A stretch of DNA of 64,000 nucleotides from Lautropia sp. (lineage in GTDB: Bacteria; Pseudomonadota; Gammaproteobacteria; Burkholderiales; Burkholderiaceae_E): assembly GCA_050249335.1 (NCBI GenBank), contig JBFWQR010000007.1, positions 20,943-84,942 on the forward strand, given 5' to 3'. Shown one piece after another: positions 42,222 through 64,000 of this stretch (within the stretch, counting starts at the first letter, position 1; each line of letters opens with the position of its first letter). A program made the position numbers and the translations under genes. A model generated the notes under the pieces. That model was given only the letters and a program-made list of their open reading frames with translations. It ran no database searches and was not told the DNA's origin.

Positions 42222-42590
42222 CTACAGCACTTCCGGCGCGAGCGACACGATCTTCATGAAGCGCTCGGTCCGCAGCTCGCGGGTGACCGGGCCGAAGATC
42301 CGGGTGCCGATCGGCTCGTACTTGGCGTTCAGCAGCACCGCCGCGTTGGCGTCGAAGCGGATCAGCGAACCGTCCGGCCGGCGCACGCCCTTGGCGGTGC
42401 GGACCACGACGGCGTTATAGATCTCGCCCTTCTTGACGCGGCCGCGCGGCTGCGCCTCCTTGACCGACACCTTGATGATGTCGCCGATGCCGGCGTAGCG
42501 GCGCTTGCTGCCGCCCAGCACCTTGATACACATGACCGCGCGCGCGCCGGTGTTGTCGGCGACGCCGAGCGTCGATTGCATCTGAATCAT
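42222..42590 (-). CDS. rplN: 50S ribosomal protein L14
   Basis: [24 protein letters not shown]. Confidence 0.98.
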
Positions 42591-46284: not shown

Positions 46285-46312
46285 GGGCAGGTCCTCTTGA
46301 GTGCCTGGTTGG

Positions 46313-46330: not shown

Positions 46331-46505
46331 ATAATCGGATTAGACGAGCTTTCGCCCGGACCGTCAAGCAGCCGGCGAGCCGACGCTGATCACGGAACAT
46401 CTCCCCGATGAACGAGCGGTTTCATGCCGAAGGCGTTCAGGTTGCTCGATTGCGCGTGGCGACAGTATGCGCGGTCCGGCGGCAGTTCGGGAGCCGCCGC
46501 CGCGA

Positions 46506-47423: not shown

Positions 47424-47482
47424 CGCGCGCTCGGCAGGGCGGTCGGCGGCTCGAGTATAGGAATTTCCTTGGCTAGAACGCC

Positions 47483-47500
47483 ATAAAAACCCGTTTTTAT
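47483..47500. promoter_or_regulatory. Dyad in LysR/ligK divergent promoter
   Basis: ATAAAAAC-CC-GTTTTTAT; second dyad AGGAA-T-TTCCT near 47458-47468. Confidence 0.5.
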
Positions 47501-47566
47501 TTTCCTCGCGGCCGCCCTAAGCTGCGGCGTCATCGAGTGATGGCCACCCACGGCGAGGAGACGCGG

Positions 47567-48214
47567 ATGCAGGTCGAAGTGACCGACGATCGGATCGAGG
47601 CCCTGAAGCGGTTCGGCACCGCGACGATCCACGAGGCCCAGGGACAGAAAGGCGCCGTCGACGGCGCGATCCGGCCGCTCGATCCGGGCATGCGACTCGG
47701 CGGCCCGGCGCTGACGGTCCAGTGCCGCCCCGGCGACAACCTGGCACTGCACTACGCGCTGACCAAGGCGACGCCGGGACAGGTCATGGTCGTCGACGCC
47801 GAGGGCTTCACCGAAGCCGGGCCGTGGGGCGACGTGATGACCGGCGCGGCGCAGCTGGCCGGCCTGCGCGGTCTCGCGATCGACGGCTCGGTGCGCGACT
47901 CGGCAACGATCGTCGCGATGGGCTTCCCGGTGTTCTCGCGCGGCATCTCGATCAAGGGCACCAACAAGTGCCAGCCCGGGCGGGTCGGCATCCCGATCGT
48001 CTTCGGCGGCGTCGTCGTGCGGCCGGGTGACATCGTGATCGGCGACCGTGACGGGCTGGTCGTCGTCCTCGCCGAGGAGGTCGACCGGGTCATCGGGCTG
48101 TGCCAGCAACGCGAGGACAAGGAGGTCGAGTTCCGCAAGGCGCTGGCGAGCGGCAAGACCTCGATCGAATTGCTGGGCCTGCAGGGCCTGCTCGACCGGT
48201 TCGACATGAAATGA
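47567..48214 (+). CDS. ligK: 4-carboxy-4-hydroxy-2-oxoadipate aldolase (LigK/RraA-like family)
   Basis: GTATIHEAQG, PGDNL, WGDVM, IDGSVRDS; RBS GAGGAG 6 nt before ATG. Confidence 0.8.
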   Translation: MQVEVTDDRIEALKRFGTATIHEAQGQKGAVDGAIRPLDPGMRLGGPALTVQCRPGDNLALHYALTKATPGQVMVVDAEGFTEAGPWGDVMTGAAQLAGLRGLAIDGSVRDSATIVAMGFPVFSRGISIKGTNKCQPGRVGIPIVFGGVVVRPGDIVIGDRDGLVVVLAEEVDRVIGLCQQREDKEVEFRKALASGKTSIELLGLQGLLDRFDMK

Positions 48215-48236
48215 ACGACGCAGGAGGAGACCAGAC

Positions 48237-49232
48237 ATGAATTCCATGACCACGACATCGGCGCTGCGTGCATCGGCGCTCGCGCTCGCCGCCGTGACGA
48301 TCGTGGCGGCGGCTGCGGCCGACGCCGCCGCGGCCGAGCCGTTCCCGTGCAAGACGATCCGGCTGATCGCGCCGAACCCGCCGGGCGGCGCGACCGACGT
48401 GCTGTCGCGGATGCTGGCCGCGCCGCTCGGGCGCCGGCTCGACGTGCCGGTCGCGGTCGAGAACAAGGGCGGCGCATCGACCAATATCGGCAACGAGTAC
48501 GTCGTGCGCGCGGCGCCCGACGGCTGCACCCTGCTGCTCGGCAACATCTCGATGGCGCTGAACAAGTCGCTGTTCCACCTGAACTTCGAGATCGAGAAGG
48601 ACCTGCGCGCGGTGATCCAGGTCGCGTCGGTGCCGCTGGTGCTGTTCGTGCACCCGAGCGTCAAGGTGACCTCGGTCAAGGAGTTCATCGCGCTGGCCGC
48701 CGCATCGCCCGGCAAGGTCACGTTCTCCAGCGCCGGCAACGGCACGCCGACGCACCTGATCGCCGAGATGATCAACCAGAACGCCGGCGTCAAGATCGTC
48801 CACGTGCCGTACCGCGGCGCCGGTCCGGCGACGATGGACGTGATCGCCGGTCAGATCACCAGCAGCACCGACTCGCTGATCCCGGTGGTGCCGCATATCC
48901 GCAGCCAGACCGTCCGGGCGCTCGCGGTCACCGGGCCGGCCCGCTCGCCGGCGCTGCCGGAAGTGCCGACGTTCCGCGAACAGGGCGTGGACTACGTCGA
49001 CCTGTCGTTGTGGTACGGTGTGATGGCACCGGCCAGAACGCCGGACGCGATCGTCAAGCGGCTCAACGAGGAGCTCTCGGCGGTGCTGTCGAGCCCGGAG
49101 GTCCGCGAGAAGCTGGTCAGTCTCGGATCGAGCGACACCGACCGGTCGCCGGACGCGTTCCAGCACCTGGTCGCCAGCGAGACCGCGCGGCTCGGCGACC
49201 TGATCCGCGCGACCGGCGTCAAGGTCGAGTGA
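48237..49232 (+). CDS. Bug/TctC tripartite tricarboxylate transporter substrate-binding protein
   Basis: PPGGATDV, VENKGGA, VPYRGAG, LPEVPTFRE. Confidence 0.92.
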   Translation: MNSMTTTSALRASALALAAVTIVAAAAADAAAAEPFPCKTIRLIAPNPPGGATDVLSRMLAAPLGRRLDVPVAVENKGGASTNIGNEYVVRAAPDGCTLLLGNISMALNKSLFHLNFEIEKDLRAVIQVASVPLVLFVHPSVKVTSVKEFIALAAASPGKVTFSSAGNGTPTHLIAEMINQNAGVKIVHVPYRGAGPATMDVIAGQITSSTDSLIPVVPHIRSQTVRALAVTGPARSPALPEVPTFREQGVDYVDLSLWYGVMAPARTPDAIVKRLNEELSAVLSSPEVREKLVSLGSSDTDRSPDAFQHLVASETARLGDLIRATGVKVE

Positions 49233-50278
49233 TGATCATCGATTGCCACGGCCACTACACGACGGCGCCGCGCAGTCTCGAGGCGTACCGGGAGGCGCAG
49301 GCCGATGCGTTTCCCGACACCGGCCGGCTGGCATCGCTGGCGATCCCGCGCTTCGGCGACGACCAGATCCGCAGCACCATCGAGAATGGCCAGCTGCGTG
49401 TGCAGAACAGCCGCGGCATCGACGTGACGATCTTCTCGCCGCGCGCGGCCGGCATGTCGCACCATATCGCCGACTTCGCCGCCGGCGAGAAGTGGTCGCG
49501 ACTGTGCAACGACCTGATCGCGCGGATCTGCGGCTTCTATCCGGACCGCTTCGTCGGCGTCTGCCAGCTGCCGCAGTCGCCCGGCGTCCCGCCTGCGACC
49601 TGCGTCCCGGAACTGGTCCGCTGCGTCGAGGAGCTCGGCTTCATCGGCTGCAACCTGAACCCGGACCCGTCGGGCGGCTACTGGAAGGACCCGCCGCTGA
49701 CCGATCGCTGGTGGTATCCGCTGTACGAGAAGGTGGTCGAGCTCGACGTGCCGGCGATGATCCACGTCAGCGCCTCGTGCAACCCGAACTTCCACACCTC
49801 CGGCGCGCACTACCTGAACGGCGACACGTCGGCATTCATGCAGCTGCTGCTGTCGGACCTGTTCCGCGACTTCCCGACGCTGAAGCTCATCATCCCGCAC
49901 GGCGGCGGCGCGGTGCCGTACCACTGGGGGCGTTTCCGCGGCATCGCGCAGGATCTGAAACGGCCGCCGCTGCCGGAACTGCTGCTCGACAACGTCTTCT
50001 TCGATACCTGCGTCTACCACCAGCCCGGCATCGACCTGCTGACCCGCGTGATCCCGGTCAAGAACGTGCTGTTCGCGTCCGAGACGATCGGCGCGGTCCA
50101 GGGCATCGACCCGGAGACCGGCCATCACTTCGACGATACCCGCCGGTACATCGACGGCGTCTCCTCGCTGACCGCGGCCGAAAGGCAGCAGATCTTCGCC
50201 GGCAATGCGCGGCGGGTCTACGGGCGGCTCGATGCGCATCTGGCGAAGCATCGGATCGGCTGGCAGGCAGGAGGTTAA
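49232..50278 (+). CDS. ligJ: 4-oxalomesaconate hydratase (LigJ-like amidohydrolase)
   Basis: MIIDCHGHYTTAP, HGGGAVPYHWGR, FFDTCVYHQPGIDLL, LFASE.IGAV.GIDP. Confidence 0.85.
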   Translation: MIIDCHGHYTTAPRSLEAYREAQADAFPDTGRLASLAIPRFGDDQIRSTIENGQLRVQNSRGIDVTIFSPRAAGMSHHIADFAAGEKWSRLCNDLIARICGFYPDRFVGVCQLPQSPGVPPATCVPELVRCVEELGFIGCNLNPDPSGGYWKDPPLTDRWWYPLYEKVVELDVPAMIHVSASCNPNFHTSGAHYLNGDTSAFMQLLLSDLFRDFPTLKLIIPHGGGAVPYHWGRFRGIAQDLKRPPLPELLLDNVFFDTCVYHQPGIDLLTRVIPVKNVLFASETIGAVQGIDPETGHHFDDTRRYIDGVSSLTAAERQQIFAGNARRVYGRLDAHLAKHRIGWQAGG

Positions 50279-50285
50279 CTTCAGT

Positions 50286-50301
50286 GTCTCACGCGTGAGA
50301 C
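50286..50301. other. Perfect 16-bp palindrome between convergent operons
   Basis: GTCTCACGCGTGAGAC. Confidence 0.6.
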
Positions 50302-50315
50302 CATTCCATCCAGGT

Positions 50316-51287
50316 TCAGATGTCGAGCACGAGCTCGTCGCTGTTCGACCGCGAGCAGCAGACCGTGATCTGGTTGTTGGCAGCCCGCTCCTCGTCGGTG
50401 AGATACGAGTCGCGATGGTCGGGGAGCCCCTGCAGGACGCCGGTGACGCACGTTCCGCAAATGCCTTGTTCGCAGGAGAGCTGCACCAGGACGCCCTGGA
50501 CGGCGAGCGCGTCGGCGATGCTCTGGTCGGGGCCGACGACGACCGTCTTGCCGCTGCGGGCCGCGCGCACGGTGAACGGCCGCCCGGTCGCGATCACGTG
50601 CGCCGTGAAGTACTCCTTGTGTTGCGCCGTCGCGGGCCAGCCCGCGGCCGACGCGCTCGCCAGCACGTGTTCGATGAACCCGGCAGGTCCGCACACATGG
50701 AGCTCGTCGCCCGGCCGATACTCGCGCAGCAGCCGCGCCGCATCGAAGCGCTGCGCGGGCGGCCCGTCGTCGAAGTGGAAGCACAGCGCAGCCGAAAACT
50801 CGCGCTGCAGCTCGTCGCGGAATGCGGCCCGCTCCTCGGACCGGGCGCAGTAGTGCAACGCATAGTCCGCACCTGCCGTCTTCAACCCGTAGGCCATCGA
50901 CACGAGCGGCGTCACGCCGATGCCGCCGGCCAGCAGCAGCACGCGGCCGCCCGACCGGTGCAGCGGAAACGCGTTCCTCGGCGCGGACGTCACCAGGCGA
51001 TCGCCCTCGCGGAGGGCGTGCATCGCGACCGAACCGCCGCGGGAGCCCGGCTCCTCGAGGATGCCGAGGCGGTAGCGGTCGCCGCGTGCCGGATCGCCGG
51101 ACAGGGAGTACGAGCGTGCGATCCCGCCCGGCAGCGTCACGACGAGGTGTGCTCCCGGACTCCACGGCGGCAAGGCGCCGCCATCGTCCCGGCGCAAGGT
51201 CAGCGAGACGACGTCGCGCGCCTCGACCTTTCTTTCCACGACACGCAGCAGCAGCCCGTCATCGCGATCGCTCGCGAGCAGGCTCAC
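50316..51287 (-). CDS. PDR/VanB family flavin/[2Fe-2S] reductase
   Basis: RSYSL, AGGIGVTP, HVCGP, CEQGICGTC...CCS. Confidence 0.92.
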   Translation of the reverse strand: MSLLASDRDDGLLLRVVERKVEARDVVSLTLRRDDGGALPPWSPGAHLVVTLPGGIARSYSLSGDPARGDRYRLGILEEPGSRGGSVAMHALREGDRLVTSAPRNAFPLHRSGGRVLLLAGGIGVTPLVSMAYGLKTAGADYALHYCARSEERAAFRDELQREFSAALCFHFDDGPPAQRFDAARLLREYRPGDELHVCGPAGFIEHVLASASAAGWPATAQHKEYFTAHVIATGRPFTVRAARSGKTVVVGPDQSIADALAVQGVLVQLSCEQGICGTCVTGVLQGLPDHRDSYLTDEERAANNQITVCCSRSNSDELVLDI

Positions 51288-51724
51288 CCCTGCCGCATCC
51301 CGCTGTCGCGCTCGGCGGAAGCGATCGCTTCCACCTCGATGAGGAAGTCTTCCTTGACCAGGCGATCGACCATCAGCAGCGTGTTGGGCGGAAACCGGTG
51401 GCCGCCGAACAGCTGCGGAAACAGCTCCGCGCGCACGCGCATGAACCGCTCGATGTCCTGCGAGTGCACGAGATACGTCGTGAACTTGATGACGTGGTTG
51501 AAGCCCAGCTCGAGCCCGCCGAGGATGCCGCCCAGGTTGGAGAACACCTGCCGCATCTGTGCCTCGAAGTCGTGGCGGCCGACGACGTTGCCGTCCTTGC
51601 CCACGGAAAGCTGGCCGGCGATGTACGCCGTGCGCCCGTTGGCGGGCACGAGCGTGACGTTGGAGTAGAGGCCCTGCGCGGGGCCGGCGCCGGGAGGATT
51701 GGTGTATTCGATGTGGCTGTTCAT
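51284..51724 (-). CDS. RidA/YjgF family protein
   Basis: AYIAGQLS, FPPNTLLMVDRL..EDFLIEVEAIA. Confidence 0.88.
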   Translation of the reverse strand: MNSHIEYTNPPGAGPAQGLYSNVTLVPANGRTAYIAGQLSVGKDGNVVGRHDFEAQMRQVFSNLGGILGGLELGFNHVIKFTTYLVHSQDIERFMRVRAELFPQLFGGHRFPPNTLLMVDRLVKEDFLIEVEAIASAERDSGMRQG

Positions 51725-51747
51725 GGAGGTGGTTGGTGGCGAGCGTC

Positions 51748-52668
51748 TCAGGCTCGCTGATGGTGAAACTCGATCTGGAAGCCGTCCGGGTCCTCGACGC
51801 AGAGTTCGCCGTCGTTCATCCAGGCTCGATGGCCGAGCCCGGCGATCCGCGTCGCGACGTCCGGCAGGTCGTGCGGCTCGGCCAGCGCGAACCGGAAGCT
51901 GCGGAGCCCGACGGGTTCGCCGTCGGCGGCTTCGGACAGCGTGATGTCCGTGCGGCCGATGGCGCCGGCCAGGCGCACGTCACGGTGACCACCGACGTTT
52001 CGCTCGCCGACCCGGTCGAGGCCCGCGACCGATGTGAAGAACTCGGCCATCTCGTCGAACCGGCGTGTGGCAAAGCGCGTCCCGGTGAGATGGCTGGGAT
52101 GCAGCGGCGCGCGCTCCACGCGGCGCACGCGAAAGCCGTCGTTGTAGTTGTGCGCGTCGCTCGGCGGCTGCGCCAGCGGGTCCCACTCGCCGGTGACTTC
52201 GTCTTCGTTGGCGAGGTTGTAGATACGTTCCCAGTCGCGCATCTGGTCGGCATAGAACTCGTGGCCGTTGCCGTCCGGGTCGTTCAGGTAGACGCTGTGC
52301 GAGATCATGTGGTCGACCGTGCGACCGAGCGGATAGTTCGACGCTCCGGCGCGCCGCAGCGCCTCGACCAGCCGGGCTTCGGTGGCCATCTCCCAGCCGA
52401 GATGATTCAGCCCGACCTGGAGGCCGCGGGTCTTCGGGATCTGCAGCATGCCGTCGCGGCCGTAGCGATCCTTGCCGCGCGAGATCTCGACGATGCCGAC
52501 GTCGTGATGCGTGTTGCCGTTGGAGTGGAAGGCGATCAGGATCGCGCGCTCGCGGCGGACCAGCTCGATGCCGCACACGGACTCGTAGAAGTCGACCGAC
52601 TTCTCGAGGTCCGACACCCAGAGGTTGACGTGGCCCAGTCGACGGGGCCGGAAACTCACGTTGGTCAC
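51748..52668 (-). CDS. Two-domain VOC family protein (extradiol dioxygenase/glyoxalase-like)
   Basis: LGHVNLWV, LNHLGWE, SVYLNDPDGNGHEFY, C-terminal DPDGFQIEF; GTG start. Confidence 0.8.
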   Translation of the reverse strand: MTNVSFRPRRLGHVNLWVSDLEKSVDFYESVCGIELVRRERAILIAFHSNGNTHHDVGIVEISRGKDRYGRDGMLQIPKTRGLQVGLNHLGWEMATEARLVEALRRAGASNYPLGRTVDHMISHSVYLNDPDGNGHEFYADQMRDWERIYNLANEDEVTGEWDPLAQPPSDAHNYNDGFRVRRVERAPLHPSHLTGTRFATRRFDEMAEFFTSVAGLDRVGERNVGGHRDVRLAGAIGRTDITLSEAADGEPVGLRSFRFALAEPHDLPDVATRIAGLGHRAWMNDGELCVEDPDGFQIEFHHQRA

Positions 52669-53381
52669 TTGATGCTTCCCAGGAGATTTTCGGCGGCGGC
52701 CTTGCTGCGCAATCCCTTGAGCAGCCGCCGGGCGGTGCTCTCGACGTGCTGCCGACTCAGCTCCGCCAGGCCGGCGGCGTCGCCCGCGCGCAGCGCCTCG
52801 AGCATCTCGCGATGCTCGCGCGCGGCGGCTTCGGCGTTGCCGGTCAGGTCGATCTCCACGCTGACGTAGGGTTCGACGGTGCTGCGCAGCGTGCCCGCGA
52901 TGCGGCTCAGGCGCTTGCGGCGCGTGCATTCGATGATGCGCAAGTGGAACTCGTAGTTGAGCAGCGTCCAGCGGCTGCGGTAGTCGGGCGCCTTGGGGTC
53001 GAGCTGCTCCATCACGACCACCAGCTTCTCCACTTCGACGACGTCGGCGGGCGTGCGCGAGAGCGCGGCGATGCGGCCGGCGTGCTCCTCAATCAGCATT
53101 CGCAGGTCGAAGACCTCGACGATCTCGGCCTGGTCCAGCGCGGTGACGGCGTAGCCGCGGCGCGGCCGCGACTCGATCAGTCCGTCGGCTTCGAGCTGGC
53201 TCAGGGCCTCGCGCAGAGGAACCCGGCTGACGTTGAAGCTGCGCGCGAGTTCTTCCTGCCGCAGCACCTGGCCTGCCTGCAATGTGCCGACGAGAATGCT
53301 CCCGCGCAACCGCTCGTACAGCATGCGCGGCAGCGTCGGCGTCGACGGCGATGGTTCAAATTCCGTGGATACCGTATCCAA
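52665..53381 (-). CDS. GntR family (FCD) regulator
   Basis: EELARSFNVSRVPLREAL wHTH; FCD NYEFH and EHREML; TTG start uncertain. Confidence 0.92.
   Translation of the reverse strand: MDTVSTEFEPSPSTPTLPRMLYERLRGSILVGTLQAGQVLRQEELARSFNVSRVPLREALSQLEADGLIESRPRRGYAVTALDQAEIVEVFDLRMLIEEHAGRIAALSRTPADVVEVEKLVVVMEQLDPKAPDYRSRWTLLNYEFHLRIIECTRRKRLSRIAGTLRSTVEPYVSVEIDLTGNAEAAAREHREMLEALRAGDAAGLAELSRQHVESTARRLLKGLRSKAAAENLLGSIK
53366..53380. promoter_or_regulatory. Inverted repeat overlapping the GntR start
   Basis: TGGATAC-C-GTATCCA. Confidence 0.55.
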
Positions 53382-53405
53382 TCTCCTGCCTCTTCCTTTC
53401 TTGTC

Positions 53406-54221
53406 CTAGCCGACGCCCGGCCCGTGCTTGACCATGAACCCGATGCTGACGCTGAGGAACTCGTCCTTGACCTGGAACAGCGGCAGATGCCCCGCATTGT
53501 CGAAGATGACAAGCTCGGAGTTCGGGATGCGTTCGTGCATCAGGCGCGATGCGGCGGGCTGCGTCGTGCGATCGGCCGAGCCCACGGTGATCAGGGTCGG
53601 CGCCGTGATTAGGTGCAGCCGGTCGCGCGCCTCGTGCGCCTGCGCCGCGGCGTTCTGGCCGGACAGACCCGGTTCGGTCCCCGGATAGGGATTGGCCAGC
53701 TCGCGGCGCTTGAACTCCTCGACGCGCTCGGGATGTTCATTGACGAACTCGGGCGAGAAGAAGCCGATGATGCGCGTCGTGAGGTCGAGTTCGCGGTCGC
53801 CGGAAACCATGATGCGCCGGCGCATCGCGATCCAGTTCTGCTGGTACTCGGTGCGTCCGCCCGCGAACGACGAGTGCAGCGACAGCGTCAGCAGCCGGTC
53901 CGAAAACCCGACGCCGAGCTCGACGCCGACGGCGCCGCCGAGCGACCAGCCAGCGAAGTGCGCGCGCTCGATGCCGGCGTGATCCATCAACGCTACCATG
54001 TCGGCCGCGAGGTCGCGGATGCCGAAACCAGGCAACGCGGCTTCGCTGCGGCCGCAACCGCGCATGTCGGGCACCAGCACGCGGAAGTGGCGGCGGTACA
54101 CGTCGACGCACTCCTGCCAGCTGCCGCCGTGCGTGCCGAAGCCATGCAGCAGGATCAGCGGCGGGCCGGCGCCCGTCTCTTCGAAGTGAAGCCGAAGTCC
54201 CGAGGAGGTGTAGTTAGACAT
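53406..54221 (-). CDS. Alpha/beta fold hydrolase (PcaD/RutD-like)
   Basis: LLHGFG, GWSLGG nucleophile elbow, GSADR, AGHLP. Confidence 0.88.
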   Translation of the reverse strand: MSNYTSSGLRLHFEETGAGPPLILLHGFGTHGGSWQECVDVYRRHFRVLVPDMRGCGRSEAALPGFGIRDLAADMVALMDHAGIERAHFAGWSLGGAVGVELGVGFSDRLLTLSLHSSFAGGRTEYQQNWIAMRRRIMVSGDRELDLTTRIIGFFSPEFVNEHPERVEEFKRRELANPYPGTEPGLSGQNAAAQAHEARDRLHLITAPTLITVGSADRTTQPAASRLMHERIPNSELVIFDNAGHLPLFQVKDEFLSVSIGFMVKHGPGVG

Positions 54222-54229
54222 GATGGTTT

Positions 54230-55114
54230 CTAGCCCGTCCGTCCGCGCGCGCCGAGCAGTCCCGCCGGGCGCAACAGCAGCACGATCACGATCACGACAA
54301 AGGGAATGAGCGTCGCCGCCAGCGTCCCGACGACGTAGGATCCAAAGCTCTCGATCAGCCCGAGCATCAGCGCACCGACGAACGCCCCCGGCATGCTGCC
54401 CAGTCCGCCGAGGATAATGATCACGAACGCGCGGATCGAATACTCGAGGCCCATGTCCGGGTACACCGCGTACATCGTGGCCAGCATCATGCCGGCCGCG
54501 GCGGCCATCGTGGCGCCGATGCCGAACGCCACCGCGTGGACGTGGCGCGCGCGAACGCCGCACGCCGCGGCGAGATCCTTGCTCTGCGCGGTGGCGCGAA
54601 TGGCCATGCCGATGTCGGTGCGATGCAGCAGCGCGAACATGCCGGCCGTGATCGCGACCGCGGTGGCGAACGCCGCGGTCCTGGAGCGCGAGACGAGCAG
54701 CTCGCCGACCATCCACGAGCCCTGCAGCAGCGGCACGGCCTTGTAGTCGGCACTCCACAGCACCCGGGCGAGCGCGGCCAGCGACAGCGACAGGCCGTAG
54801 GTCAGGATCAGCGAGCTGTCCTCGATCGGCATCCGGCTGCCGTCGAGGCGCCGCACGACGAAGTACTGGAACAGATAGCCGCAACCGAAGAACACCGGGC
54901 CCAGCAGCAATAGGGCGAACACGGGGTTGAGCCCCGCGAGCTGCCAGACCCAGAACGCCGCGAACGCGCCCATCATCAGCACCTCGCCGTGCGCCATGTT
55001 GAGCACGCGGATGACGCCGAAGATGACGTTCAGTCCCAGCGCCAGCAGCGCGTAGACGCCTGCCAGCAGCAGCCCGTTGACGGTGAGCTGGCCGATGAGA
55101 CTGAACTGGTCCAC
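54230..55114 (-). CDS. Branched-chain amino acid-type ABC permease (LivH-like)
   Basis: LGLNVIFGV..VLNMAHGE, GMAIRA, GGLGSMPGA. Confidence 0.9.
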   Translation of the reverse strand: MDQFSLIGQLTVNGLLLAGVYALLALGLNVIFGVIRVLNMAHGEVLMMGAFAAFWVWQLAGLNPVFALLLLGPVFFGCGYLFQYFVVRRLDGSRMPIEDSSLILTYGLSLSLAALARVLWSADYKAVPLLQGSWMVGELLVSRSRTAAFATAVAITAGMFALLHRTDIGMAIRATAQSKDLAAACGVRARHVHAVAFGIGATMAAAAGMMLATMYAVYPDMGLEYSIRAFVIIILGGLGSMPGAFVGALMLGLIESFGSYVVGTLAATLIPFVVIVIVLLLRPAGLLGARGRTG

Positions 55115-55133
55115 CTCGATCTCTCTCGCGCGA

Positions 55134-56333
55134 TCAGGAGCGCTTGTCCCACGGCGGAAGCGTGGTCACCATCTGCGCGGTGGCGATGCTGGACGGCGTG
55201 ACGATCTGCCGCTTGCCGCCCTGCCACTGCACGGTGCCCAGCGTCTGGCCGATCTGCCGTCCGGTCGCGGCGTCCACCTTGAACCGCCCGGGCAGCAGCG
55301 TCTCCATGTCGAGCTTGAGGAAGGCCTCCCGAATCTTCTCGTTGTCCATCGCGCCGGCAGACTTGACCGCCGCCTCCAGGAGCTGGCCGCCGACCCAGCC
55401 GAAGCCGGACTGCACGTCGGGTTCGTCCTTGTACGCCGCGCGCCACTTGGCCGTGAATTCCTTGCTCACCGCCTTCTGGTCGACCGGCTCCCAGAGGTAG
55501 TCGGACATCACGCCCTCGGCGTCGCCCTTCAGCGCGGTGTGGAAGTCGTCCTTCAGCGGTCCGGGGCTGAGCGCGAGCGCCTTGGGCAGCACGCGCGCCT
55601 CCTTCATGTTGCGCACGATCAGCATCGAGTCCGGCAGCTGCGCGCCGCCGACAATGAGATCCGGCTTCGCAGTGCGCAGCTTGAGCATCAGGCTGGACAG
55701 GTCGGTCGCGTCGATGGGGAACTCTTCCTTGAGCACGACTTCGCGGTTGTACTTCTTCGCGAGCGCTTCGCAGGCGCCGCCCACGCTCTTGGCATACAGG
55801 TCGGACGAATGCACGATCGCCACGCGCTGGTAGCCCGCGCGGCTGGCCACGTCGTCCAGCAGCGGCTCGAAGATGCCGGCGATCGGCGGAAAGAGCTGGA
55901 AGATGTACTTGTACCCGCGCGTGAAGATCGAATCGCTCGCCGCGGAGGGCAGCAGCATCGGGATCTTGTATTTCTCGGTCACTGCCGACGCGGCGAAGCT
56001 CGCCGCGCTGCCGTAGGGGCCGAGCACCATGTCGACCTTGTCTTCGGTGATGAGCTTCTCGTAGAGACGCGCGCTGGTGCCGGCGTCGCTGCGATCGTCG
56101 AAGATCAGGAACTCGACGCGGCGGCCGAGCAGGCCGCCGCGAGTGTTGACTTCGCGCGCCCACAACTCGTAGCCGCGCTTGACCTTGTCGCCCGACGCCG
56201 ACAGCGTGCCGGTCAGCGAGAGCGAGGCGCCGATGCGCAGCGGGCGCTGCTGGGCGAAGACGCTGCCGCCGACCGCGGCGGCAACGGCGCCCATGGCGGA
56301 ACCGATCAGGGTGCGACGTTTCAGGATGTCCAT
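55134..56333 (-). CDS. Branched-chain amino acid-type ABC substrate-binding protein
   Basis: RR signal; IGASLSLTG, NTRGGLLGRRVE, LGPYGS. Confidence 0.9.
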   Translation of the reverse strand: MDILKRRTLIGSAMGAVAAAVGGSVFAQQRPLRIGASLSLTGTLSASGDKVKRGYELWAREVNTRGGLLGRRVEFLIFDDRSDAGTSARLYEKLITEDKVDMVLGPYGSAASFAASAVTEKYKIPMLLPSAASDSIFTRGYKYIFQLFPPIAGIFEPLLDDVASRAGYQRVAIVHSSDLYAKSVGGACEALAKKYNREVVLKEEFPIDATDLSSLMLKLRTAKPDLIVGGAQLPDSMLIVRNMKEARVLPKALALSPGPLKDDFHTALKGDAEGVMSDYLWEPVDQKAVSKEFTAKWRAAYKDEPDVQSGFGWVGGQLLEAAVKSAGAMDNEKIREAFLKLDMETLLPGRFKVDAATGRQIGQTLGTVQWQGGKRQIVTPSSIATAQMVTTLPPWDKRS

Positions 56334-56345
56334 GGAATCACTCCG

Positions 56346-57452
56346 TCACAGGTTGAACAGGCGGGTGGTGTTGCCGCCCACGACTAGCTGCTGGGCGGCG
56401 GGCGGCAGCGCCTGCAGCATCTCGGCGAGCCGGCTCTGCGTTTCGATGCCGATCGAGCGCACATGCGGGAAGTCGGAGCCCCACAGCACCTGCGAGTAGC
56501 CGATCTCCTTGAACGCGACCTCGGCGCGCGGGTCGTCGATCATTCCGTGGAAGATCCGCGTGCGCAGGTAGTCGCTCGCCTTGTGATCGAGCGGCGGCAT
56601 CTTGATGTAGTCGCCGAAGTCATCCTGGACCTGGTCGAGCCGGTACATGAAGTGCGGCAGCCACGACAGTTCGTACTCGCCGCACAGCACCTTGAGCGTC
56701 GGAAAGCGGTCGAGGATCCCGCCGAAGATGAAGTCGTTGCCCAGCGTGCTCTGGATTTCGTTCCAAACCTTGAGCATCGCGCGCGGCGCCTGCTTGTACT
56801 GCTCCTCGTCGTGGAAGTACACCAGCGGATCGATCTCCTGGCCCGTGATGATGTGGAGGATCACCGGCTGGTCGAGCTCCTGGCAGACGGCCCAGAATCT
56901 GTCGTAGCTGCGGTCGACGTACGGCCGGGCCGACGGCGGCGGCGTGACGTTGACGAGGCATCCGCGCAACCCGCGGTTGGCGGTCCGGCGCAGCTCGGCG
57001 ACGGCCCAGTCGATGTCGTGCACTGGAATCACGCTCGTGCCGATCAGCCGCTTGGGATCAGCCGAACAGAACTCGGCGATCCAGTCGTTGTAGACCCGGC
57101 ACGCGGCCTGCGCGATCTCGGCGTCTTCGACCGTGATGATCTGCGCGCAGATGCTGGGATAGATCACCTCGCCGGCGAGCCCCGCGCGCTTCTGGAATTC
57201 GAGGCGGACGTGCGGATCGAATCCGGACTTGACCAGCAGGTCCTCTTCCGGCGTGCGCTGGTCCGGCGGCGTGTCGCTGACGCCGTACTTGCTGACGTGC
57301 TGGCCGCTGAAGAAGAACTTGCCCTTGCGGCCGCGGTGCTCGGTCAGGGGCCGTGGCGTGCGGTCACCGTACTTCGAGCCCATTGCATCCCACCACAGGT
57401 TCACCGGCTCCCGCACATGTGAGTCGCCGGAGATCACGCGTTCGAACTGCAT
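56346..57452 (-). CDS. Amidohydrolase_2 family protein (decarboxylase/hydratase-like)
   Basis: ISGDSHVRE, VILHI, FPTLK, LWGSDFPH. Confidence 0.85.
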   Translation of the reverse strand: MQFERVISGDSHVREPVNLWWDAMGSKYGDRTPRPLTEHRGRKGKFFFSGQHVSKYGVSDTPPDQRTPEEDLLVKSGFDPHVRLEFQKRAGLAGEVIYPSICAQIITVEDAEIAQAACRVYNDWIAEFCSADPKRLIGTSVIPVHDIDWAVAELRRTANRGLRGCLVNVTPPPSARPYVDRSYDRFWAVCQELDQPVILHIITGQEIDPLVYFHDEEQYKQAPRAMLKVWNEIQSTLGNDFIFGGILDRFPTLKVLCGEYELSWLPHFMYRLDQVQDDFGDYIKMPPLDHKASDYLRTRIFHGMIDDPRAEVAFKEIGYSQVLWGSDFPHVRSIGIETQSRLAEMLQALPPAAQQLVVGGNTTRLFNL

Positions 57453-57462
57453 GCACTTATCC

Positions 57463-58194
57463 TCACGAAGCGGCCGCGGGAACGGCCTGATTGCCGAAGT
57501 AGAGCGATAGGATGTCGCTGCCCTGCGCGAAGGCAGAGGCCGGCTCGTCGCGTACGATGCGACCCATCCGCAGGAAGCACACACGCCGCGCCGCGCGCAG
57601 CGCGAACCGGATGTTCTGTTCGACCAGGATCAGCGTGACGCCGCGCTCGTTGAGCGTTGCGAGCTGGCCCGCGAAGAACGCCAGCGTCTTCGGGTCGAGC
57701 CCGATCGATGGCTCGTCGAGCAGCAGCGCGCGCGGTTCGAGCATCATGGCGCGCGCGAGGCCCACCATCTTCTGCTGCCCGCCGGACAGCGAGTTGGCCG
57801 GCTTGCGGCGGTACGACGCGACGTCCGGATACCGTTCGTACGTGCGCTCCAGCACCTCGCGCCGGCGGCGGCGATCAGGCTCGACGTAAACGCCCATCAG
57901 CAGGTTCTCTTCCACGGTCATCGCCGGAAAGACGAGGTCCGACTGCGGCAGCAGCGCGAGGCCGCGGCGCGCCCGCTCCGCGGCCGGCAGCGTGGTGACG
58001 TCGGCACCGCCGAAGTGGATCTGCCCTTCGCGCGCGCGCAGCAGGCCGGCCATGGTCTTCAGCAGCACGCTCTTGCCCGCGCCGTTCGGCCCGAGCACGG
58101 CAACGACTTCGCCTTGCCGGACCGCGAGGTCGAGCCCGTGCAGCACGTCGAGCTTGCCGTAGCCGGAGCGAACCCCCTGCAGCGTGAACAGCAT
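57463..58194 (-). CDS. ABC ATP-binding protein (LivF-like)
   Basis: GPNGAGKS, LSGGQQKM, LLDEPSIGL. Confidence 0.92.
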   Translation of the reverse strand: MLFTLQGVRSGYGKLDVLHGLDLAVRQGEVVAVLGPNGAGKSVLLKTMAGLLRAREGQIHFGGADVTTLPAAERARRGLALLPQSDLVFPAMTVEENLLMGVYVEPDRRRRREVLERTYERYPDVASYRRKPANSLSGGQQKMVGLARAMMLEPRALLLDEPSIGLDPKTLAFFAGQLATLNERGVTLILVEQNIRFALRAARRVCFLRMGRIVRDEPASAFAQGSDILSLYFGNQAVPAAAS

Positions 58195-58910
58195 CACGCC
58201 TCTCCGAGATACGAGCTGATCACAGCGGGGTCGCGCCGGACCTCGTCGGGGCTGCCGTCGGCGATCAACCTGCCGCGATCGAGCACGAGGATGCGCGGGC
58301 AGAGCGCCATGACCGTCGCGAGGTCGTGCTCCACCAGCACGATGCCGATGCCCTCCTCCGCCAGGTGCGTGACGTGCCGCTGCAGGTCTTCGCAGATCTG
58401 CGGCGCCAAGCCGGCGAACGGCTCGTCGAGCAGGATGAAGCGCGGCCGGCTCATCATCACGCGCGCGAGTTCGACCAGCCGTTGCTGGCCGAACGACAGC
58501 GCATCGGCGGTGCGTGCCGCGAGCTGTCCGATGTTGAGCCGCTTCAGCAGCGTCGTGGCCTCGTCGACCGACGGTACGTCGTCGCTCGTCGCGCCGCGGC
58601 CGATCAGGACGTTCTCGACCACGGTCAGGCTCTTGAACAGCCGGGTCGTCTGGAACGTGCGCGCGATGCCGGCGCGCACGATCTCGTGCGGCCGGCGATT
58701 CGTGAGCCGCAGGGTGCCGAGCGCGACTTCTCCCGCGTCGGCCCGCACGATGCCGGTGAGCACGTTGAACAGCGTGGACTTGCCCGATCCGTTGGGGCCG
58801 ACCAGCCCCGTGATGCAGCCGGGTTCGCACCGCAGCGAGCACCCGTCCAGCACGACGAGGCCGCCAAATTTCTTGCTCAGCCCATCGGCGCGCAGGCTCG
58901 CCGCGCTCAC
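58194..58910 (-). CDS. ABC ATP-binding protein (LivG-like)
   Basis: GPNGSGKS, LSFGQQR, LLDEPFAGL; GTG start. Confidence 0.92.
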   Translation of the reverse strand: MSAASLRADGLSKKFGGLVVLDGCSLRCEPGCITGLVGPNGSGKSTLFNVLTGIVRADAGEVALGTLRLTNRRPHEIVRAGIARTFQTTRLFKSLTVVENVLIGRGATSDDVPSVDEATTLLKRLNIGQLAARTADALSFGQQRLVELARVMMSRPRFILLDEPFAGLAPQICEDLQRHVTHLAEEGIGIVLVEHDLATVMALCPRILVLDRGRLIADGSPDEVRRDPAVISSYLGEA

Positions 58911-59902
58911 GCCGCAGCCTCCTTGTTCGCATCCCGGCGCCGCTTGAACCAGCCCAGCAGTCCGTCGGGCGCGAACAGCACGAGCGCCATCAGCAGCAGA
59001 CCGAATACGAGCTGGTGCAGCGTCGGAAAGTGCGCCCACAGCAACTCGGACAACCCGAACACCAGCACCGCGCCGATCACGGGGCCGAACACCGTTCCCG
59101 CGCCGCCCAGCAGCACCATCACGATCATGCTCACGTTGATGCGCAACGAGAACGCTTCGTCGGGGTTGATGTAGCTGAGGTACCACGCGTAGACGCCGCC
59201 GCAGAAGCCGGGCAGCACCGCGCTCAGCACGAACGCCTTGAGCTTCTCGGCCTGCGTGTCGATGCCCACGGCTTCGGCCGCGAGCTCGTCGTCGCGGATC
59301 GCCTTGAGCTTGCGGCCGAAGTTGCTGCGGTCGATGGCCCAGACGCCGCAGACGGACACGATCGCGGCCAGCGCGAGCGCGAAGTACACCGGCACCAGCG
59401 ACTGCGACGACGGCAGCGACAATCCCTTCCCGCCGCCGGTCCACTCGTCAGCCACGTGCACCGCGATGCGCAGCACCTGGCTGAACGCCAGCGTGAGGAT
59501 CACGAACGCCGGGCCCTTGATCCGCAGCGACGGAAAGCCAACCACGAGCGCGCCCAGCGCCGCCCCGGCCGCGCCAAGGCAGGTCGCGGCGATCCAGTGC
59601 AGGCCCGCGCCGGTGATCAGCAGCGACGAGCAGTATGCGCCGATGCCGAAGTACGCGACATGGCCGAATGTGAAGTAGCCGGTGTAGCCACCGATGAGGT
59701 TCCAGCTGCTGGCGAGCGCGATGTACATGAAGCCCAGCAGCAGGACGGACAACTGGTACGGCGACGCGATCAGCGGCGCGGCCGCGATCAGCGCGCACAC
59801 GGCCAGCATCACGATGACGAGGCGGCGCGACACCCGCCGGTCCTGACTGGAAGCCGGGTCGGACACGAGCGGCAGCACCGCTGCGCCGACCCGGCGACTC
59901 AT
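58907..59902 (-). CDS. Branched-chain amino acid-type ABC permease (LivM-like)
   Basis: GYTGYFTFGHVAYFGIGAY, GRKLKAIRDDE, GGAGTVFGP. Confidence 0.9.
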   Translation of the reverse strand: MSRRVGAAVLPLVSDPASSQDRRVSRRLVIVMLAVCALIAAAPLIASPYQLSVLLLGFMYIALASSWNLIGGYTGYFTFGHVAYFGIGAYCSSLLITGAGLHWIAATCLGAAGAALGALVVGFPSLRIKGPAFVILTLAFSQVLRIAVHVADEWTGGGKGLSLPSSQSLVPVYFALALAAIVSVCGVWAIDRSNFGRKLKAIRDDELAAEAVGIDTQAEKLKAFVLSAVLPGFCGGVYAWYLSYINPDEAFSLRINVSMIVMVLLGGAGTVFGPVIGAVLVFGLSELLWAHFPTLHQLVFGLLLMALVLFAPDGLLGWFKRRRDANKEAAA

Positions 59903-60528
59903 CTGCCGTCGCGCCACTGAAGACACGAAGATACGCCGGGAACGACGCGGGCAGGCAGGCGGCGCGCCGGGTTCATGTACCCGACCTCGACGACCGCGAC
60001 GACCCGGCCCTCACCGGGGTCGACGCCGACGAGCCGATGAACCTCCGGCGACTCCGGCAGATCGCCGGTGGTGATCAGCGACGACAGCCCGTTGCTGGCG
60101 AGCGAGAGCAGCAGGTTCTCGATCGCCGCGGCGCAGGCGAACTCCTCTTCCTTCGGCTTCACCTTCGGGTTGGAGGTCTGCGGCAGGCACGCCGCGACGA
60201 TCATGACCGGCGCTTCGGTCCCGCGCGCGCGCGCCTGGCGCGTATCGCGCCCGAGCCGGCCGCCGGCCGCCTCGTACGCATCGGCCAGGGACTCGAGACC
60301 GTCTCCGGCAAACGCGAACAACCGCAGCGGCTGCGATCGGTGGTGATTCGGCGCCTGCAACGCATGCCGAACCGCGTCTTCGACGAGGTGCCGGGGCACG
60401 GGTTTGTCCAGGTACGAGTACACGGACCGGCGCGACGAAACGACCGCCTCCAACGCTTGCGCGAGATCGAAATTCGCGACCGGTGCGGCGGCTGATTCCC
60501 CGCCGCCGTGAGCGTCCTGAGACATCAA
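59899..60528 (-). CDS. Nitroreductase family protein
   Basis: SRRSV, ALQAPNH..SQP, IENLLL....GL. Confidence 0.82.
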   Translation of the reverse strand: MMSQDAHGGGESAAAPVANFDLAQALEAVVSSRRSVYSYLDKPVPRHLVEDAVRHALQAPNHHRSQPLRLFAFAGDGLESLADAYEAAGGRLGRDTRQARARGTEAPVMIVAACLPQTSNPKVKPKEEEFACAAAIENLLLSLASNGLSSLITTGDLPESPEVHRLVGVDPGEGRVVAVVEVGYMNPARRLPARVVPGVSSCLQWRDGR

Positions 60529-60538
60529 ACCCCTTTCG

Positions 60539-60689
60539 ATTATGTATACATTCTACGAATATTTGACCGAATCATTCACATGCGCAACCGCGATCTTGGA
60601 GGTTTCAGGAGTGTATTTCGCGACTCTATCTGCGTCAATTATGTATTCAATAACTCACCAACTCTCCTATAAATGATTTTTGAATACAC
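60539..60689. promoter_or_regulatory. AT-rich control region with repeated GTATNCA boxes (GntR-type operators)
   Basis: ATGTATACAT palindrome 60542-60551; ATTATGTATTCAA 60638-60650; TGAATACA 60681-60688. Confidence 0.6.
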
Positions 60690-60784
60690 TTATGGCGAGC
60701 AAGGAAATGGTTCGCGATAGCGTGCGGGCCAATCGACGCACGAGCCGCAAGGGCGCCCCGATGGACGGCACCACTGATGTTCAG

Positions 60785-61158
60785 ATCGGCATAGGGGCCG
60801 GCCCTCGCGGGCCGGGCCCCTTAGCGGCTGTTACGCCGCCAGCGTCGGCTGTTCGCGGCCACGGCCCCGGGCGTCCATTCGCCGTGCCTCGAGCACGGCC
60901 TCATGCGCATCGCGGCCCGGTCGGAAGCCGTGGCTGTGCTCCGAGAACGTCGGGTCGATGATGAGCTCCTGCAGCAAGGCCTGCTGGATCAGCCGATCCA
61001 CCACCGTCAGGATCCCCAGTTCGCGCTGCCCACCGTCGGGCTTCGGTATCCGGACCCGCCGCACCGGCTCGGGCCGGTAGCTGCCGTTCGGTTCTCACTT
61101 GCCGTGATCAGCTTGTGGGGAGACTCACACCCCAGGAGTGCGCCCGTGCCGGGCGCAC
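60785..61158 (-). mobile_element. Internally deleted class IIC group II intron (374 nt)
   Basis: 5' end GTGCGCCCGGCACGGGCGCA...GTGTGAGTCTCCCCACAAGCTGATCAC; RT fragment; domain VI-like AGGGG-CCCGGCCC-GCGA-GGGCCGG-CCCCTATGCCGAT 3' end; placed directly after an intrinsic terminator. Confidence 0.85.
60879..61088 (-). pseudogene. Group II intron reverse transcriptase fragment (RT1-2 region, ~70 codons)
   Basis: GSYRPEPVRRVRIPKPDGGQRELGILTVVDRLIQQALLQ..DPTFSEHSHGFRPGRDAHEAV; GIPT changed to GILT; no YADD region. Confidence 0.9.
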
Positions 61159-61184
61159 AAAGAAAACCCGGCGATCGCCGGGTT
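61159..61184 (-). terminator. Intrinsic terminator of the S10 operon
   Basis: AACCCGGCGATCGCCGGGTT hairpin followed by TTCTTT on the minus strand, ~120 nt after rpsQ. Confidence 0.85.
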
Positions 61185-61305
61185 GCTGGATCAGCGACGT
61201 CGGGCCGGTAGGCCGCATCGTCGCTTGTTGTCGTCGAGCGTCTTGTATCCGGCGTTGCCGCCGGGAGCGCTGTCGCTGTCGGTAGAGGCCGGTTGCCCGT
61301 CCGGT

Positions 61306-61605
61306 TCAGACGGACTTGTTCGCCACCAGCAGGCGCGAGACATACCACGCCTTGGTCTTGGACACCGGACGCCCTTCCTGGATCTCCACCAGATCCCCCT
61401 CGTTGTACCGTGCTTCCGTGTGCGCATGGTACTTCTTGCTGCGCGTCACGTACTTGCCGTAGACCGGATGCTTGACCTTGTGCTCGACCAGCACGGTCAC
61501 GGTCTTCTGCATCTTGTTGCTGGTGACCCGGCCGGACAAAGTCCGGGTATTGGTCTTGGGTTTGGTGCTCGACTCGGCCGTCGCCGCTGCCGTCTGCTCG
61601 GTCAT
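61306..61605 (-). CDS. rpsQ: 30S ribosomal protein S17
   Basis: [21 protein letters not shown]. Confidence 0.97.
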
Positions 61606-61796
61606 TTGCTTGCCGCCTTCTCGGTCATCACGGTCTGCACCCGCGCGATGTCACGCTTCAGCCGCTTGAGCTGGGCCGTGTTGCTGTTCTGCTGGGTCGC
61701 GATCTGCATCCGCAGCGCGAAATGCGCGCGCTGCAACTCGCCGAGCTCCTTCTCGAGCCCGGCCGCGTCCTTGGTCCTCAATTCGTTCGCTTTCAT
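61602..61796 (-). CDS. rpmC: 50S ribosomal protein L29
   Basis: [16 protein letters not shown]. Confidence 0.96.
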
Positions 61797-61800
61797 GCTG

Positions 61801-62217
61801 TCATGCACCGATATGGCGGCTGACGAAGATCGTCGACAGCGGCAGCTTGGCCGCGGCCAGCGCGAACGCCTCGCGCGCCAGCGACTCGTCGACACCGTCC
61901 ATCTCGTAGAGCACCTTGCCCGGCTGGATCTCGGCGACGTAATACTCGGGGTTGCCCTTGCCGTTGCCCATCCGGACCTCGGCCGGCTTCTGCGAGATCG
62001 GCTTGTCCGGAAAGATCCGGATCCAGATCCGGCCGCCGCGCTTGATATGACGCGTCATCGCGCGCCGAGCCGCCTCGATCTGGCGCGCGGTCAGACGGCC
62101 GCGAGCGGTCGCCTTCAGGCCGAACTCGCCGAACGAAACGCTGGCACCCCGCGTCGCGAGGCCCTTGTTGCGGCCCTTCTGTTCCTTGCGGTATTTCCGC
62201 CGGGATGGTTGCAGCAT
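61801..62217 (-). CDS. rplP: 50S ribosomal protein L16
   Basis: [18 protein letters not shown]. Confidence 0.98.
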
Positions 62218-62274
62218 GACTGTCTACCTTGAATTTCGCTGTCGCCGCCGGTCGACTGCCGGCCGTCTCGCTAT

Positions 62275-63174
62275 CTAGTTCGCACCCTTGTCGCCGCCGG
62301 CATCGGCCTCGGACGTACCGGAGACCTTGCGCACGCGCTTGACGGTCGACTTGGGCGCGGCATCGGCCGGCGCCGCAGCCGCCGGAGCCGCAGCCTCGGC
62401 GCCTTCCGGCCGGCGACGCGGACCGCCGCGGCCGCCCGGCCCGCCGCCGCCCGGCCGCCCCGGGCCGCCCGGCCGCCGTGACCGGCGATCATCGCGTTCC
62501 GGCGCCGGCGCCGCATCCTTCTCGGTCGCCGCCGGCGCATCGGTCCGGCCGAGCGTGTCGCCCTTGTAGACCCAGACCTTGACGCCGATGATGCCGTAGG
62601 TGGTCCGCGCTTCCGAGGTGCCGTACTCGACGTCGGCGCGCAGCGTGTGCAGCGGTACCCGGCCTTCGCGATACCACTCGGTCCGCGCGATCTCGGCGCC
62701 GTTCAGCCGGCCGGCGCTCATGATCTTGACGCCGAGCGCGCCGAGCCGCATCGCGTTCTGCATCGCGCGCTTCATCGCGCGGCGGAACATGATCCGCTTC
62801 TCCAGCTGCTGGGTGATCGAGTCGGCGATCAGCTGCGCGTCGGTCTCGGGTTTCCTGATCTCCTCGATGTTGACGTGCACGGGCACGCCGAGCATCCGAT
62901 GGAGCTCGCCCTTGAGCCGTTCGATATCCTCGCCCTTCTTGCCGATCACGACGCCCGGCCGCGCCGAGAAGATCGTGATCCGCGCATTCTTCGCCGGCCG
63001 CTCGATCAGCACCCGGCCGACCGACGCGTTCTTCAGACGCTTCTTCAGGAACTCGCGGACCTTCAGGTCCTCGTTGAGCATCCCGGAGAAGTCCTTGTTG
63101 CCGGCGTACCAGCGCGACGCCCAGTTGCGGCTGACGGCGAGCCGGAAACCGGTCGGATGAATTTTCTGTCCCAT
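62275..63174 (-). CDS. rpsC: 30S ribosomal protein S3 with long low-complexity C-tail
   Basis: [31 protein letters not shown]. Confidence 0.98.
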
Positions 63175-63214
63175 GCTTGGATCGATCCTTTCAGCTTCGT
63201 CCGTTCTGGCCCGC

Positions 63215-63559
63215 TCAGGCGCGGGCGCTCTTGGTACCGACGATCAGCGTGATGTGACACGTCTGCTTCTCGATCCGGACGCCGCGACCCTTGGCGCGCG
63301 CGCCGAAGCGGCGCAGCGACGCGCCCTCGTCGACATGGATCCGGTTGACCCGCAGCTCGTCGACGTCGGCGCCTTCGTTGTGCTCGGCGTTGGCGATCGC
63401 CGACTCGAGCACCTTCTTGATGATCTTGGCGGCCTTCTTCGGCGAGAACGTCAGGATGTTCAGCGCAGCCTCGACCGGCTTGCCCCGCACCTGGTCGGCA
63501 ACCAGCCGGCCCTTCTGGGCCGAGATCCGGACGCCGCGCAGCACTGCTTGAGTTTCCAT
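63215..63559 (-). CDS. rplV: 50S ribosomal protein L22
   Basis: [20 protein letters not shown]. Confidence 0.97.
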
Positions 63560-63581
63560 CGTCTTTCCCCGCGGGCCGCGC

Positions 63582-63857
63582 TCAGCGCCTGGCCTTTCTG
63601 TCGGCAGCGTGACCCTTGAACGTGCGCGTCAGCGCGAACTCGCCGAGCTTGTGCCCGACCATGTTCTCGTTGATGAACACCGGGACATGCTGCTTGCCGT
63701 TGTGCACGGCGATGGTCAGGCCGATGAACTCGGGCAGCACCGTCGAACGCCGCGACCAGGTCTTGATCGGACGCTTGTCCTTGCCGGCCGAAGCGGACTC
63801 CACCTTGGCGAGCAGGTGGTAGTCGACGAACGGGCCCTTCTTGACTGAACGTGCCAT
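63582..63857 (-). CDS. rpsS: 30S ribosomal protein S19
   Basis: [19 protein letters not shown]. Confidence 0.98.
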
Positions 63858-63872
63858 GATTGCGTGATCCGG

Positions 63873-64000
63873 TTATTTCTTCTTGCGCCGCTGCACGATC
63901 ATCGTGCTGGTGCGCTTGTTGCGACGCGTGCGATAGCCCTTGGTCGGCTTGCCCCACGGGTTGACCGGCACCCGGCCTTCGCCGGTCTTGCCCTCGCCGC
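63873..64000 (-). CDS. rplB: 50S ribosomal protein L2, C-terminal fragment (window edge)
   Basis: [29 protein letters not shown]. Confidence 0.95.

Follow-up and report, generated by a model that had tools for sequence, protein, structure and literature searches.

The 374 nt that directly follow the terminator of the S10 operon are very probably a dead, non-functional relic of a class C (IIC) group II intron, with both exact termini kept and the interior lost in three gaps. The relic is located on the minus strand of the window (the whole stretch of 64,000 nt that was analysed), and is composed of four patches that in local alignments are colinear with nine full-length introns and with 80 more loci from the genome collection. 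In coordinates of the window, the relic, its retained segments and the deletion junctions between them are:

60785..61158, minus strand: whole relic, 374 nt of a class C (IIC) group II intron with internal deletions, from four colinear matches to full-length family members
61095..61158, minus strand: segment A, intron nt 1–65, i.e., GTGCG and the first domain I hairpins, 80–87% identical to many 5′ ends (E 1e-9 to 1e-15)
61092..61094, minus strand: deletion junction 1, about 630 nt gone, from an A–B distance of 620–680 nt in every full-length copy
60863..61091, minus strand (start at about 61091): segment B, about 70–76 RT codons (approximately residues 98–170 of the 458-aa IEP; RT motifs 1–2), from RVT_1, the GsI-IIC RT and tblastn
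60863..60879, minus strand: deletion junction 2, about 750 nt gone, placed within about 17 nt by alignments to family copies and tblastn
60824..60862, minus strand: segment C, 39 nt of DNA coding for the ORF C-terminus (VAANSRRW..NS), 86% identical over 35 nt to L033 1862–1896 (E 6e-7)
60821..60824, minus strand: deletion junction 3, about 125 nt gone, from alignments to full-length copies
60785..60821, minus strand: segment D, the distal domain VI hairpin (GCGA loop) and the 3′ strand with a bulged A at 60792 and the terminus CCCCTATGCCGAT, 81–84% identical to family 3′ ends

Segment A begins with the GUGYG boundary of class C introns (GTGCG at 61158), followed by a homologous domain I 5′ region, and the copies that match it all begin directly behind terminators. 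In a DNA search, related genomes were each seen to contain many copies of the first approximately 64 nt of the relic and of a few T-tract bases before them, with 81–87% identity and E values down to 1e-13/1e-15, and the RT piece is always found 620–680 nt downstream of the matching 5′ end (72–73% identity). At the opposite end, the hairpin reads GGGGCCCGGCCC-GCGA-GGGCCGGCCCC, and the 13-mer terminus CCCCTATGCCGAT at 60797–60785 is identical to that of the family; it is the sole such site in the window, where the chance expectation is 0.09 with one mismatch allowed. Class C domain VI in general has a bulged branch-point A at 7–8 nt from the 3′ end; that of the relic is at position −8, within the family terminus, with the helix incomplete. 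The family alignment of domain VI shows covariation between GGCA/UGCC and GGGA/UCCC; in the relic, the basal 5′ strand GGCA is absent, and the full domain VI helix cannot form. 

Segment B shares 73–78% DNA identity and 70–81% protein identity (tblastn) with the family; its frame is open, the N- and C-terminal parts are both gone, and there is no native start. Its defects are a proline-to-leucine replacement in the GIPTV motif and the in-frame loss of two codons (6 nt). The open frame of 77 codons at 61064–60831 on the minus strand matches the N-terminal part of Pfam RVT_1 with an E value of 2.6e-6 and a score just below the cut-off (27.7 vs 29.6 bits). Segment C is out of frame relative to segment B, and the same patch is matched in at least 10 other family loci. 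The initial annotation had described about 65 nt resembling a IIC domain I start, about 70 codons of degenerate RT and a domain VI-like hairpin. The first two descriptions agree with the alignments of the first 64 nt and with the RVT_1 and GsI-IIC RT matches; for the hairpin, the GCGA loop, the A at −8 and the family terminus are confirmed, and what is found falls short of a complete domain VI in that the GGCA strand is lost.

Comparison with the full-length copies defines what each gap has taken. Gap 1 runs from the remainder of domain I, with the exon-binding sites (EBS1), through domains II–III into domain IV, of which the 5′ part is missing along with the initial 97 or so RT codons. Gap 2 removed RT motifs 3–7 and most of the X/thumb region. 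In gap 3, the ORF lost its end, domain V was lost completely, and domain VI lost its basal 5′ strand. The three junctions are clean, with 0–17 nt that have no assignment. Internal deletions had been proposed before, as at least two; the number is three large ones, in addition to the 6-nt in-frame loss in the RT patch. The RNA fold of the 374-nt relic is not significant (z −1.67).

The full-length relatives, from related Burkholderiales genomes, are 1835–1880 nt long and open with GTGCGCCC(A/G)GCA(T/C)GGGCGCAC. The nine full-length copies have an invariant domain V, GAACCGCCCGGTGCGGACCCGCAYGCCGGGTGGT, followed by domain VI that closes in CCCCTAT(G/C)CCGAT, and the IEP of the G006 reference copy has 458 aa and is without an endonuclease domain. 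The domain V triad of the family is CGC, which is a IIC trait, AGC being the triad in domain V of other classes. The family is widespread in Burkholderiales and other Proteobacteria, and decayed copies are present among its members: L034 (G019:C2:83050–86050) has an internal deletion of about 240 nt and lacks the 3′ end, and of L067 and L068, the copy from G050 has an internal deletion of about 120 nt and that from G078 is cut at intron nt 958 or thereabouts.

With respect to intron class, a PDB search with the IEP of a full-length relative gives a match over the whole length to the GsI-IIC RT (E 1e-126), then to other IIC RTs (7uim, 5hhl and 5hhj; 1e-75 to 1e-93), compared with 2e-42 for a IIB RT and 2e-35 for LtrA (IIA). 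The 66-residue RT fragment of the relic likewise has the GsI-IIC RT as best PDB match (residues 55–120, E 1.5e-24), followed by other IIC RTs, E.r. and R.i. among them, at 1e-18, and by IIA and IIB RTs at 1e-9 to 1e-11. The class ranking is the same for the fragment and the full-length relative, IIC being ahead of IIA and IIB, and on this ranking of sequence matches the IEP fragment of the relic would belong to the class C RT clade. An alternative origin from a non-intron RT (retron, DGR, Abi or CRISPR-associated), combined with a fortuitous likeness to intron ends, could be argued from the roughly 70 RT codons that are left and from an RVT_1 score of 27.7 bits where the cut-off is 29.6 bits. 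We consider this origin close to negligible: the four leading PDB matches are group IIC RTs with E values of 1e-18 to 1e-24, IIA and IIB RTs come after these, and retron and DGR RTs are nowhere near, with the next match at E 0.004. Moreover, noncoding intron sequence borders the fragment on both sides, with the 5′ end and the 3′ end each placed and oriented as in an intron.

An Rfam search over 58000–64000 at E ≤ 10 found no group II family. The full-length relatives score 96–111 bits with group-II-D1D4-3 and 40–49 bits with D1D4-1, and in intact relatives the Rfam matches cover intron nt 82–374 or thereabouts and no other part, which is within the first deletion of the relic; RF00029 (Intron_gpII, domains V–VI) gave no match at E ≤ 1 on the intact family introns L033, L034 and L035. 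Because the retained parts fall outside the region that Rfam detects in the family, the null result for the relic is not evidence against an intron. A lack of match to group II intron RNA models had been named in the initial annotation as an outcome that would speak against its proposal, and this is formally what was obtained, yet it is undiagnostic since the models miss the retained parts. Relics of this kind are overlooked by the Rfam group II models, which leave the first 65 nt and domains V–VI of this family uncovered.

A second line of evidence is provided by the insertion site, for which the relevant features are:

61306..61605, minus strand: rpsQ (ribosomal protein S17), last gene of the S10 operon, Pfam Ribosomal_S17 (E 5.8e-28)
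61159..61184, minus strand: intrinsic terminator of the S10 operon, 8-bp stem with GATC loop, plus the T-tract TTTTCTTT, from a terminator scan

Orthologues of rpsQ are present in 23 of the 25 relatives. On the minus strand, a spacer of 121 nt separates rpsQ from the terminator, the stem of which (AACCCGGCGATCGCCGGGTT, 61184–61165) is followed by TTCTTT; the T-tract reads TTTTCTTT when the closing TT of the stem is counted. Between stem and relic the T-tract is accordingly 6–8 nt long, and GTGCG opens at 61158 with no gap. A second reading of the sequence together with the terminator scan returned the terminator, TTCTTT, GTGCG and both ends of the element at the positions given initially. The relic is thus in sense orientation immediately downstream of an intrinsic terminator hairpin, and insertion behind intrinsic terminators is a hallmark of class C introns (PMC4424553; PMC7306698).

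The same preference is evident in the family as a whole. Where a hairpin that is stable, and five or more T within the last 10 nt, are required directly upstream, 89% of 85 distinct family insertion sites qualify, compared with 2.4% of control positions, and the site of the relic (−18.5 kcal/mol, 7 T) fits this pattern. In same-genus relatives without the intron, similar stems (ACCCGGC..GCCGGGT) with a T-run are found behind rpsQ, and the region downstream of rpsQ, which had been put forward for comparison, has the same kind of terminator in an unoccupied state in the relatives. The S10 terminator is the target site of the intron and was kept intact through the insertion. Taken with the shared termini and the IIC-closest RT, the terminators at the family sites and the empty sites uphold the original proposal of a mini class IIC intron with both termini kept, right after the S10 terminator.

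The element had also been called probably dead, and the losses described above bear this out: domain V, most of domain I and the RT are absent. A pattern search allowing up to 3 mismatches found domain V neither in the window nor in the whole genome, and a domain V–VI covariance model built from eight relatives gave no match above noise in the window; the model requires domain V, and the 3′ end of the relic itself is therefore also missed by it. The stretch GAACAGCCG, with an AGC triad, had been regarded as what is left of domain V. This candidate was rejected, since it aligns to ORF DNA and the triad of the family is CGC; it belongs to the patch of 35–39 nt that codes for the C-terminus of the ORF (VAANSRRWW). 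What splicing requires is missing from the relic, i.e., a domain V with its triad, a complete domain I with EBS1/EBS3 and its tertiary contacts, and domains II–III, and for autonomy, in place of an intact RT/maturase ORF of about 420–460 aa, there are some 70–76 codons and a C-terminal patch that is out of frame. 

Nor does the genome appear to contain a source of the lost parts. In the assembly (7.66 Mb, 309 contigs, 98% complete), a DNA search found neither a second copy of the relic nor a parent, and no other group II RT is present, the relic being the sole match both to its own RT fragment and to a full-length IIC RT. Copies with the junctions of the relic were found in none of 40 relatives, 172 family genomes and 80 further loci; in the last two sets, no match crossed even one of the three junctions. 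The search of the genome for identical short copies or a full-length parent, as recommended in the initial annotation, thus came out empty, and the suggestion that the element might be a non-autonomous derivative if copies recur loses its basis. Because the core (most of domain I with EBS1, domains II–III, and domain V with its triad) is gone, and no supplier is present in the genome, we infer that splicing, mobility and the capacity to code for an RT have all been lost.

Two other accounts of the short form are to be weighed against these data. One is a non-autonomous mini-intron with a dispensable interior that depends on a full-length IIC intron for splicing or mobilisation in trans. This would explain why both termini are exact and why the 5′ hairpins and the distal domain VI, bulged A included, have survived three deletions. 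Group II catalysis requires domain V, EBS1 and domain I in cis as parts of the RNA, and of these the relic retains no more than a small part of domain I; the basal helix of domain VI is unable to form. The element is present as a single copy in a genome without helper intron or RT, and its junctions recur in 0 of 172 family genomes and 0 of 80 loci. The multiple copies with shared internal junctions that would mark a MITE-like element are not seen, and mobilisation in trans is highly improbable. 

The other account is an assembly artefact, in which a full-length or multicopy intron has been collapsed to a chimeric short form. The family often terminates contigs in relatives, and the genome is a 309-contig draft, so that an error of this type is conceivable. 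Against this, the assembly contains nothing else of the family, be it a copy, a fragment, a domain V or an RT, which means that there are no repeats to collapse. The contig continues for kilobases on both sides, and three separate deletions in order are atypical of assembler error. We judge an artefact to be very remote, and a genuine, internally deleted relic remains the preferred reading.

A very probable course of events can be outlined for the origin of this relic. An autonomous IIC intron of about 1.85 kb would have retrotransposed, in sense orientation, into the single-stranded terminator motif behind rpsQ. The S10 terminator would have stayed intact, and the intron would have been placed where transcription is rare. 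Three internal deletions (about 630, 750 and 125 nt) would have arisen either later or by faulty cDNA synthesis at insertion, and the end state would be passive spacer DNA between the intact S10 terminator and the promoter of an accessory operon. Compared with functional relatives, the RT patch has a dN/dS of 0.13–0.28. Because the differences are mostly synonymous, most of the RT divergence appears to predate inactivation, at a time when the lineage was still functional, and the parent lineage would be one that is unsampled. The open RT frame and the low dN/dS indicate little neutral decay, which fits a recent origin, or one in which the element was born deleted, and does not fit a long decay.

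Birth in the deleted form, with all three gaps made in a single event by template jumps of the RT during cDNA synthesis, would lead to the same dead product. Template switching is readily performed by group II RTs, and the clean junctions with 0–17 nt unplaced, the exactness of both termini and the little-decayed RT patch with its open frame and a dN/dS of 0.13–0.28 can all be read in favour of such an event. Other family copies, however, have single internal deletions or truncations typical of ordinary decay, and the 2-codon loss and the proline-to-leucine replacement in an invariant motif imply that some change took place after inactivation. A one-event origin is the less probable course, albeit one that deserves consideration. 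That both exact termini survived three deletions could hint at either selection or a single-step origin. In either case, what is left is an unremarkable remnant of a mobile element of well-known type.

Relative to known systems, the relic is most similar to the terminator-inserting IIC introns. Examples are GsI-IIC from Geobacillus stearothermophilus, O.i.I1 from Oceanobacillus iheyensis and B.h.I1 (Robart et al. 2007, as cited in PMC7306698 and PMC4424553), and the relic, like them, is in sense orientation a few nt past the hairpin and T-tract of a terminator. Further features in common with these introns are the GTGCG 5′ end, the family 5′ hairpins, an RT closest to IIC and the bulged domain VI A at position −8 and, for the full-length relatives of the relic, a length of about 1.85 kb, an En-less IEP of 458 aa and a CGC-triad domain V. 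Unlike working IIC introns, the relic keeps 374 of about 1850 nt, and is without domain V, domains II–III, EBS1 and a functional RT. The ORF-less group II introns of bacteria and organelles are also short and without a functional IEP, but they retain the whole ribozyme (domains I–VI) and splice, whereas the core of the relic is lost. 

Truncated copies offer a further comparison. Bacterial group II intron copies are mostly truncated or inactive, and a genome with fragments usually contains no full-length counterpart of them (PMC4424553, PMC3522654). In analogy to the truncated copies in the surveys by Dai and Zimmerly (PMC4424553) and by Leclercq and Cordaux 2012 (PMC3522654), the relic is an inactive fragment in a genome from which the full-length counterpart is absent. 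Catalogued group II fragments are mostly cut at one end, in contrast to the relic, in which both exact termini are kept and the interior is lost in three gaps. It provides a fully mapped example of the fate of a IIC intron, with retained termini, three gaps and no parent in the genome.

The surroundings of the relic differ from the usual arrangement between the S10 and spc operons. In most relatives, the rpsQ–rplN distance is 270–610 nt, with a terminator after rpsQ and a CCTTCTATACTCT promoter before rplN. In the window, the S10 terminator and the spc promoter are separated by approximately 18.3 kb (42815–61158) that contain accessory genes, those for a nitroreductase and a Liv-type ABC transporter among them. 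The features that delimit this block, and the one next to the relic, are:

42225..42590, minus strand: rplN, first gene of the spc operon, at the far edge of the ~18.3-kb block
42802–42814: conserved spc/rplN promoter motif CCTTCTATACTCT, at the far edge of the block, with rplN
60540..60720, minus strand: AT-rich patch, probable promoter/operator of the downstream nitroreductase–ABC operon, outside the intron, with 39–50% GC in a region of 68–70% GC

The relic occupies the rpsQ-proximal edge of the block, and so marks the boundary of the 18 kb insert, as had been recognised from the start. Further intron fragments are absent from the window, including the far edge of the 18-kb block, and an origin of the block by recombination between two intron copies is unsupported for this reason. 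In three same-genus relatives (G001, G002 and G007; loci L040, L042 and L038), different genes lie directly behind the same terminator, which makes the S10–spc spacer a recurrent landing place. The relic dates at least one mobile-element insertion to this spacer, which repeatedly holds accessory genes in the genus. 

The AT-rich patch contains a sigma-70-like site, TTGACG-17-TACACT, at 60638–60610 on the minus strand, and the motif ATTATGTATWCA occurs three times within 60536–60688, as direct copies at 60536–60550 and 60635–60649 and as an inverted copy at 60677–60688. It is probably the operator/promoter of the downstream nitroreductase–ABC operon, as predicted from these elements. A role for which the relic would have been retained, either as a structured spacer or insulator before the accessory promoter, or in that its insertion marked or helped to create the S10–spc hot spot, appears very unlikely, and passive spacer DNA is the description that we prefer.

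In annotation, this locus is best described as a remnant of a group IIC intron. Two ORFs overlap the relic: one of 93 codons on the plus strand (60680–60961), which is a GC-rich antisense frame, and that of 77 codons on the minus strand (60831–61064), which is the RT remnant; neither of them should be listed as a gene.

Some observations concern the full-length relatives themselves. At L033 (G006:C1:1012200–1015200), a full-length intron is located behind the terminator of a tRNA gene (L033 72–145), and an equal-scoring tRNA gene is found at 2215–2288, about 160 nt beyond the 3′ end of the intron. G006 has at least six near-identical copies of the intron, for which reason the family is considered active in this genome. 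Matches to the family are often located at contig ends in relatives, which indicates that it troubles assemblers. Introns can also occur in tandem, as seen at approximately 390–435 of L090, where GTGCG opens 1 nt past the 3′ end of another copy (..CCCCTATGCCGATG|GTGCG), and where the domain VI hairpin may have acted as a terminator-like target.
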